920 nt of DNA from a phage, in the sequence record AJ318417.1, one strand, 5' to 3'. Shown piece after piece: positions 127-893 of the stretch. The notes under the pieces are model-generated. The model was not told the DNA's origin. It worked only from the letters and a program-made list of their open reading frames with translations, and made no database searches. Position numbers and translations under genes: made by a program. Numbering within the stretch: position 1 is the stretch's first letter; each line of letters starts with the position of its first letter.

Positions 127-459
127 ATGAAAACGATTAATCTGAACGCTGCAGTTAAAACTAAATGCTTCAATGGTAAATATGATGAAACTATGTGGTT
201 CTTAATGGCAGTTGAAGGTGATATTATTGAAGTAGAAACAACAGAAGGTATGGGAACAGATTTCACCTTTACAATTCAGGTTCATAATTTCTTTACTGGT
301 TGGATTTATGAATTGAATACAGTAATCGTTGGAAAAATTGAACAAAATGAATTAGGTGAATGGTATTATGTTACAGCTCGCCAACGTGCCGAACGCTTAA
401 TTGAGAAGATGAAAAAAGTCGGTAAACTTGACATGCAACACTGGAAAGTAGTAAAATAA
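127..459 (+). CDS. Hypothetical small phage protein, 110 aa; function unknown
   Basis: ORF from the six-frame track with ATG start, strong GGAG RBS at the correct spacing, its own upstream promoter and a TAA stop at 457..459. I verified the translation by hand against the track. The N-terminal ~80 residues are rich in aromatic and beta-branched residues, and the C-terminal ~30 residues are basic (RQRAERLIEKMKKVGK...). No family was recognised. Confidence 0.85.
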   Translation: MKTINLNAAVKTKCFNGKYDETMWFLMAVEGDIIEVETTEGMGTDFTFTIQVHNFFTGWIYELNTVIVGKIEQNELGEWYYVTARQRAERLIEKMKKVGKLDMQHWKVVK

Positions 460-461
460 TT

Positions 462-490
462 GTTTACTTTGGTACAGGATATGATATTAT
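462..490 (+). promoter_or_regulatory. Putative sigma70 / T4-early-type promoter (P2) driving the 528..893 ORF
   Basis: Seen in sequence: gtttac at 462..467 (context tgtttacttt matches the T4 early -35 motif), a 17-nt spacer (468..484), and tattat at 485..490 as the -10. It begins 2 nt after the stop codon of the upstream ORF. The start site is inferred to lie near 497..499. Confidence 0.55.
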
Positions 491-501
491 ATACCTGTAC
501 C
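471..501. repeat. Perfect 8-bp inverted repeat (ggtacagg / cctgtacc) enclosing a 15-nt AT-only loop that contains the P2 -10 element
   Basis: Seen in sequence: ggtacagg at 471..478 is the exact reverse complement of cctgtacc at 494..501; the loop at 479..493 is atatgatattatata. No T-run follows (gcaattaaacatc), so it is not a canonical intrinsic terminator. Possible roles are an RNA hairpin in read-through transcripts from P1 or a DNA-level operator for a dimeric protein. Confidence 0.6.
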
Positions 502-515
502 GCAATTAAACATCT

Positions 516-520
516 CGGAG
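516..520 (+). promoter_or_regulatory. Shine-Dalgarno sequence (cggag) for the 528..893 ORF
   Basis: Seen in sequence: ggag at 517..520 lies 7 nt upstream of ATG at 528. The context ggagaataaaaatg is nearly identical to the first ORF's initiation region ggagaataaaatg (117..129). Confidence 0.75.
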
Positions 521-527
521 AATAAAA

Positions 528-893
528 ATGAACTACATCAACTTTGAACGTAAATATGTTTCTAATGGTATTGCAGGTTCTATTGATACTATCTGCCTTT
601 GGAAACATCAAAATGGATCAGTATGCGAAATTGAACAGTATATGACTCCTAACTATGTTTATATGCGATTTGAAAATGGCATCACGGTTTCAATCACAAT
701 GGAAGGTTCCAACTTTAAAATCGCTCTGGATGATGATTTTCGTCAACGCGATTTAGGGACTCATCCTTGCTGGAATGGTGCTAATCGCAAGCTTTTGGTT
801 AAAACTTGGATTCGTCATATTCTGAGTAACAGAGCTAAACCTGAGCATCTTGAAGCAATCTTTGATGTAGTTCTTAACGAATTTGATATTTAA
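528..893 (+). CDS. Hypothetical small phage protein, 121 aa; function unknown
   Basis: ORF from the six-frame track with ATG start, GGAG RBS, its own upstream promoter and a TAA stop at 891..893, followed by a GC-rich hairpin. It contains Cys23, His27, Cys33, His79 and Cys81 (including a GTHPCWNG stretch). No family was recognised. Confidence 0.85.
   Translation: MNYINFERKYVSNGIAGSIDTICLWKHQNGSVCEIEQYMTPNYVYMRFENGITVSITMEGSNFKIALDDDFRQRDLGTHPCWNGANRKLLVKTWIRHILSNRAKPEHLEAIFDVVLNEFDI

Follow-up and report, generated by a model that had tools for sequence, protein, structure and literature searches.

What do the small early genes between rIII and the DNA ligase gene of T4-like phages contribute to infection? 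The question is raised by a 920-nucleotide stretch of phage DNA (sequence record AJ318417.1; one strand, 5′ to 3′; hereafter the window) that carries two short genes, 30.8 and 30.7. With moderate confidence, we favour a model in which these genes encode two small, soluble accessory proteins of a single domain each, unrelated to one another and housed in separate promoter-early stem-loop (PeSL) cassettes of the hyperplastic region between rIII and ligase gene 30, expressed as an early pulse and likely to bind a target.

Both open reading frames (ORFs) lie on the plus strand of the window, as do the early promoters, hairpins and ribosome-binding sites described below, and both start with ATG. 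The ORF listing places ORF1 at 127-459 (110 amino acids, stop codon 457-459) and ORF2 at 528-893 (121 amino acids), in exact agreement with an earlier note made from these letters. That note had called the two proteins unrecognised, which does not hold, as both are named, Pfam-curated T4 families. ORF1 is identical to T4 gp30.8 (NP_049822, UniProt Q00305) at 109 of 110 residues (99%; substitution Y80H) and matches PF06019 (Phage_30_8) over its full length (residues 1-110, profile positions 1-124), scoring 199.1 bits (E 2.4e-59) where 25 bits is the gathering threshold. ORF2 is identical to T4 gp30.7 (NP_049821, UniProt Q02408) at 120 of 121 residues (99%; substitution E59K) and matches PF06919 (Phage_T4_Gp30_7), also over its full length (residues 1-120, profile positions 1-118), scoring 177.6 bits (E 8.1e-53; gathering threshold 27 bits). 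The proteins also fall into phrog_1507 (30.8) and phrog_1582 (30.7). Homology searches therefore returned confident family matches, but the families concerned (PF06019, PF06919 and the two PHROGs) carry no assigned function.

Megablast found the window in 679 phage records, nearly all from Tequatrovirus and its relatives, with a top identity of approximately 99%. The window is the reverse complement of approximately 129.46-130.38 kb of the T4 reference genome (NC_000866; in the ungapped conversion, the T4 coordinate is 130380-p for window position p), where the gene order is 31, rIII, 30.9, 30.8, 30.7, 30.6 ... 30.1, 30 (DNA ligase). In T4, gene 30.8 occupies the same place after 30.9, with the same promoter, ribosome-binding site and terminator, and the region upstream of 30.7 is identical to that of the window. 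The two ORFs are thus the long-catalogued T4 genes 30.8 and 30.7; the region is already known, and the window adds nothing new to the catalogue.

T4 early promoters are recognized by sigma-70 RNA polymerase through −35, TGn and −10 elements (Hinton 2010). Both genes are preceded by a promoter of this type, and the promoter elements are identical to those of T4. The promoter scan located the early promoter of 30.8 (P30.8) at 70-99, with the −35 element GTTTACA at 70-76 (hexamer TTTACA, 71-76), a 17-nucleotide spacer, TGn at 91-93 (TG, 91-92) and the −10 element TAGTAT at 94-99, forming the extended element TGaTAGTAT (91-99). One base of the spacer differs from T4, and the whole intergenic region before 30.8 contains two differences, none of them in an element. 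The early promoter of 30.7 (P30.7) was located by the same scan at 463-490, with TTTACT at 463-468, a 16-nucleotide spacer, TGn at 482-484 (TG, 482-483) and TATTAT at 485-490, forming the extended element TGaTATTAT (482-490). The promoter motif TTGTTTAC-N14-TGATANTAT was absent from all 200 shuffled sequences.

Each start codon is preceded by GGAGAATAAAA. Before 30.8 this site spans 117-127, running into the ATG at 127, with the Shine-Dalgarno GGAG (117-120) 6 nucleotides ahead of the start codon; before 30.7 it spans 517-527, just ahead of the ATG at 528, with GGAG (517-520) at a distance of 7 nucleotides. The early-type promoters and strong translation signals that the earlier note had described before each ORF are therefore present. 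Its description of two short genes of a T4-like phage, each early and with a promoter of its own, is likewise upheld by data from T4: supplementary tables list 30.8 and 30.7 as early at both the RNA and protein level, with the proteins detected by proteomics (Wolfram-Schauerte et al. 2022), and the T4 middle-promoter table (Hinton), which lists P30, P30.2 and P31, contains nothing between 129.4 and 130.4 kb.

The two ribosome-binding sites are also exact copies of GGAGAAUAAAA, the consensus target of RegB/S1, which is an 11-nucleotide single-stranded element comprising a GGA triplet followed by an A-rich tail (Durand et al. 2006). None of the 200 shuffles reached the observed count, and both sites (117-127 and 517-527) were predicted to be unpaired by RNA folding. 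In T4, the 30.7 mRNA, sampled 2 min after infection, has been used as a known early RegB substrate (Juskauskas et al. 2022, PMC9409239); that paper places the cut in the Shine-Dalgarno GGAG and cites Truncaite et al. 2006 for it. These features suggest a sequence of events. Host sigma-70 RNA polymerase would fire the strong −35/TGn/−10 early promoters immediately after infection, as documented for T4, and the unstructured GGAGAAUAAAA ribosome-binding site would allow efficient translation of both transcripts. Because the same element is both a ribosome-binding site and a predicted optimal RegB/S1 cleavage site, translation should be cut off within minutes. Together with the PeSL cassettes, the RegB sites are thus predicted to confine expression of both genes to a short early pulse.

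PeSLs are promoter-early stem-loop cassettes of T4-type phages; they were defined mainly in RB49/phi1, PST/T4 and nt-1/KVP40, and one subclass has a stem-loop that overlaps the −10 box (Arbiol 2010; Comeau 2014). Both intergenic units of the window have the features of a PeSL, namely an early promoter, a stable stem-loop and a Shine-Dalgarno sequence flanking ORFans in a hyperplastic region. They share the layout of a stop codon, an AT-rich stretch, a sigma-70-like early promoter, a stem-loop, a Shine-Dalgarno sequence and a start codon; they differ in the position of the stem-loop, which lies upstream of the −35 element in the 30.8 cassette and overlaps the −10 element in the 30.7 cassette. 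Compared with the PST/T4 PeSL consensus (TTTACW N17 TAYWAT), P30.8 has a single mismatch, located in the −10 element, and P30.7 has a spacer of 16 rather than 17 nucleotides. The units also resemble PeSLs in flanking genes without known function in a hyperplastic region and in having a mosaic junction at a cassette. In the portions of the PeSL literature that were accessible, the two T4 cassettes 30.9|30.8 and 30.8|30.7 are not named.

The stem-loop of the 30.9|30.8 cassette doubles as the intrinsic terminator of the preceding gene. The 3′ end of 30.9 occupies 1-16, with the stop codon TAA at 14-16 (T4 30.9 end at 130364 by the ungapped mapping), and is followed at 20-50 by a hairpin (terminator scan) with a stem of 20-28/33-41, a UUCG loop and a T-run at 41-50. 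The predicted fold has an energy of −15.4 kcal/mol (z −3.1), and no shuffle among 200 folded equally well. A hairpin plus T-run also precedes the 30.8 homologue at three other loci (L002, L006 and L007). In the 30.7 cassette, RNA folding predicts a stem-loop at 471-501 whose two arms (471-478 and 494-501) lie on either side of the −10 box; the region 460-530 folds with −20.1 kcal/mol (z −4.7). Only transcripts reading through from upstream carry this hairpin, and it lacks a U-tract, making its terminator activity only putative.

The best sigma-70 match of the window (11 of 12 positions) lies at 428-457, within the 3′ end of 30.8 and just upstream of P30.7, and consists of TTGACA, an 18-nucleotide spacer and TAAAAT. 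Both hexamers are retained in T4 and are not retained in phage C6. This match could represent a tandem promoter or a chance resemblance.

Comparison across phages suggests that the cassettes serve as units of exchange. A GTTTAC...GGAGAATAAAATG layout was found ahead of one or both gene families in four other genera of Straboviridae (Jiaodavirus, Dhakavirus, Kanagawavirus and Biquartavirus), comprising a −35-like hexamer, GTTTAC, and, ahead of the ATG, a GGAG(A/T)AAT... site, with some variation from gene to gene. Gene 30.8 itself also occurs at other loci. In Aeromonas phage UP87 it is flanked by primase and dda, and outside Straboviridae a homologue is found in a Justusliebigvirus, corresponding to Phi92_gp248; these two copies off the rIII-30 locus span L004 2989-3372 and L005 2998-3330. 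The occurrence of 30.8 outside both the rIII-30 locus and Straboviridae argues for horizontal transfer of the single gene.

The identity distributions of the two genes are discordant. A tblastn search detected 30.8 in 1,042 phage records, approximately 440 of them at no less than 90% identity, and 30.7 in 995, of which approximately 700 reach that level. In Dhakavirus C6, 30.7 is 93% identical to that of the window, whereas the neighbouring 30.8 is only 39% identical, and the DNA alignment, divergent up to the −35 hexamer of P30.7, becomes near-identical exactly there (window 460-527; L006 approximately 3370-3437). Within C6, 39 nucleotides from TGTACC through the ATG (TGTACCAAATAATACGAAAACAAACTGGAGAATAAAATG) are identical ahead of 30.8 and of 30.7, and this is a regulatory cassette repeated within one genome. 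A distant paralogy of 30.8 and 30.7 was considered and rejected (hhalign probability 0.1%); since the families are unrelated, the genes form independent cassettes rather than a two-gene system. The conserved cassettes would act as recombination joints and thereby allow the two genes to be swapped separately, and the sequence comparisons make a solid case that 30.8 and 30.7 have been exchanged independently between phages.

Both genes are dispensable under the conditions surveyed. In the CRISPRi-ART data for T4, 30.7 (score −0.45, p 0.94) and 30.8 (score −0.39, p 0.85) were classed as Not Fit; gene 31, for comparison, was classed as Fit (score 4.12, p 1.3e-9). Furthermore, a viable natural isolate of Tequatrovirus, Escherichia phage vB_EcoM-RPN226, carries an in-frame fusion of 86 amino acids that joins gp30.8 residues 1-36 to the C-terminus of gp30.3 (L008 2501-2761), with loss of the remainder of 30.8, the whole of 30.7 through 30.4 and the greater part of 30.3. 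This deletion joins coding sequences, not cassettes. A like chimera, in which 30.7 residues 1-78 are joined to 30.3, is present in metagenomic contigs (P0017), and one 30.8 sequence carries a frameshift (P0004).

Alongside this dispensability, the coding sequences are tightly constrained. Gene 30.8 differs from its T4 counterpart at 7 nucleotides and 1 amino acid (ratio of nonsynonymous to synonymous substitution rates, dN/dS, 0.037), and 30.7 at 16 and 1, respectively (dN/dS 0.015); relative to Dhakavirus C6, dN/dS for 30.7 is 0.044. These ratios provide solid, sequence-based support for strong purifying selection on both genes. Genes that can be spared in the laboratory and are nevertheless under strong purifying selection have the profile of accessory genes that are useful only conditionally.

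A structural model of gp30.8 was generated with AlphaFold2 from a 97-sequence alignment built after profile search, and was of high quality (predicted local distance difference test, pLDDT, 96; predicted template-modelling score 0.84). The predicted protein is mostly beta, with eight strands, including a long hairpin (24-38/41-54), followed by a helix (84-98) and two short strands. A Foldseek search of this model against BFVD returned only members of its own family, searches of PDB sequences and profiles, NCBIfam and PADLOC gave no match, and Pfam scans of individual members gave only scattered sub-threshold matches. The main residual point is that gp30.8 is confidently predicted to adopt a fold without detectable structural relatives in the libraries searched. 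Most members of the family are approximately 120 amino acids long and contain an acidic insert of approximately 10-14 residues, ETYEDEETGYSED, which is missing from T4-type gp30.8 (110 amino acids), including that of the window; the corresponding site lies at window 364-378 (residues approximately 72-79; alignment A3 columns 79-92).

The early pulse, the conditional dispensability, the spread over phage families infecting Enterobacterales and Aeromonas and the lack of enzymatic signatures together make it probable that the proteins act by binding. Each protein would bind a target in the infected cell stoichiometrically, not enzymatically, during the first minutes of infection. The likeliest targets would be host factors or strain-specific defences shared by Enterobacterales and Aeromonas, and the benefit of 30.8 and 30.7 would appear in some hosts or conditions only. 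The binding of a target, as opposed to catalysis, is weakly favoured by the lack of a transmembrane-like or signal segment in either protein, the lack of a match to a catalytic family and the acidic character of the 30.8 family.

A role in host takeover or anti-defence is plausible by analogy with the T4 early accessory class, which includes counter-defence genes such as tifA, dmd, adfA and nrdC.5 (Srikant et al. 2022). Like 30.8 and 30.7, these are short genes, expressed early, that T4 can do without in laboratory hosts; they sit in variable regions and are conserved across T4-like phages. The likeness is one of gene class only, as no sequence or fold similarity to 30.8 or 30.7 was detected and neither of the two is known to affect a defence system. 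Neither protein matched a characterised inhibitor in searches of PDB sequences and profiles, BFVD folds, PADLOC (which covers defence, not anti-defence, proteins), NCBIfam and Pfam, and the literature search found no functional study of gp30.7 or gp30.8.

Could the proteins instead be catalysts or nucleic-acid binders? It is doubtful that gp30.7 is a small metal-dependent enzyme or a ligand-binding protein, acting for example on a nucleotide signal, but the pattern of conservation gives this idea some substance. In 25 diverse members, diverging to approximately 30% identity, H27, G30 and H79 are invariant, N5, F6, F48, G51, D75, L76 and D113 are near-invariant (D75, L76 and D113 at no less than 90%), and the motif RDLxTHPxW is retained. 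No profile of an enzyme family in Pfam, NCBIfam or PDB was matched by gp30.7, however, and Pfam scans of individual members yielded only scattered sub-threshold matches. An exhaustive search of 1.84 billion representative proteins with a gp30.7 hidden Markov model returned only 29 matches (25 at E<=1e-10), mostly stand-alone proteins of approximately 120 amino acids or fragments thereof, and the structural model is too poor to tell whether H27, H79, D75 and D113 cluster. Four giant repeat proteins among these matches (P0143, P0144, P0146 and P0148; E 1e-12 to 1e-3; Pfam content PKD, Ig and Fascin) were rejected as repeat-inflated chance similarity, with 5-9 bits per repeat and totals summed over near-identical repeats. 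For gp30.8, the earlier note had pointed to a basic C-terminal tail that might bind nucleic acid, a proposal that is weakened by the model and is now very improbable. The model places residues 84-98 in a helix (pLDDT 97-99) with two short strands after it, so that this segment belongs to the fold and is not a loose tail. Moreover, the family is acidic (median isoelectric point 4.9, net charge −7), most of its members carry the additional acidic insert, and among the basic residues only K96 is conserved at no less than 90%.

The remaining alternatives concern what the genes are for. Genes 30.8 and 30.7 are transcribed in the direction shared by ligase and other genes of DNA metabolism, which still allows a phage-directed role, in which the proteins would not act on the host but would, for example, modulate replication, repair or ligase in the service of the phage's DNA or nucleotide metabolism. 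We regard this as distinctly unlikely, because 30.8 also occurs off the locus in UP87 and in phi92-like phages, whose replication machinery differs, because knockdown of either gene had no fitness effect and because RPN226 has naturally lost most of 30.8 and all of 30.7. Dispensability in the laboratory and in one natural isolate, together with a position between recombinogenic cassettes, would suit functionless cargo that persists only through PeSL mobility. That explanation is hardly credible: it is largely refuted by the selection data (dN/dS 0.015-0.044), by full-length conservation over approximately 1,000 phage records from many genera and by the fact that the 30.8 alignment supports a model with pLDDT 96, indicating a conserved fold.

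Several observations nevertheless weigh against early-pulsed target binders that act on the host. No search result ties either protein to a host or defence target, the shared direction with ligase is compatible with the phage-directed role noted above, and the dispensability scores cover a single laboratory host. For the 30.8 site, which is predicted from sequence, the literature search found no report of RegB cleavage in the accessible portions of its sources. The gp30.7 model (pLDDT 54), which shows six strands and then two C-terminal helices, is unreliable, and a metal or catalytic site, contrary to a pure binder, could be built from the invariant H27 and H79 together with the near-invariant D75 and D113.

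Only approximately 62 of the nearly 300 genes of T4 are needed under laboratory conditions (Srikant et al. 2022), and 30.7 and 30.8 belong to the unexplained majority of genes in this best-studied lytic phage. Given their tight conservation, the sharp early pulse predicted for them and their exchange as cassettes, the two genes probably decide which hosts can be infected. Assignment of their targets would be useful to phage therapy and to defence-system biology.

Several minor features were also recorded. A MotA-box-like sequence, AAATGCTTCA, lies within 30.8 at 173-182 and was rejected, as, judged from the sequence, it stands too close to the nearest −10-like hexamer and no middle promoter is listed there. 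Rfam matches to mir-126 and Phe_leader were likewise rejected; their scores fall under the gathering cut-offs and merely reflect two hairpins. Downstream of 30.7, a GC-rich hairpin at 902-917 (−12.3 kcal/mol, z −1.6, a weak signal) is an annotated terminator in phages Aplg8 and wV7, and the window ends before its 3′ context. On the minus strand, a T-rich run follows this hairpin, which was scored as terminator-like. In T4, gene 30.6 comes after 30.7 with no promoter listed between them. The end of the window, 900-920, is its most divergent stretch relative to T4, with 13 of 21 positions different.
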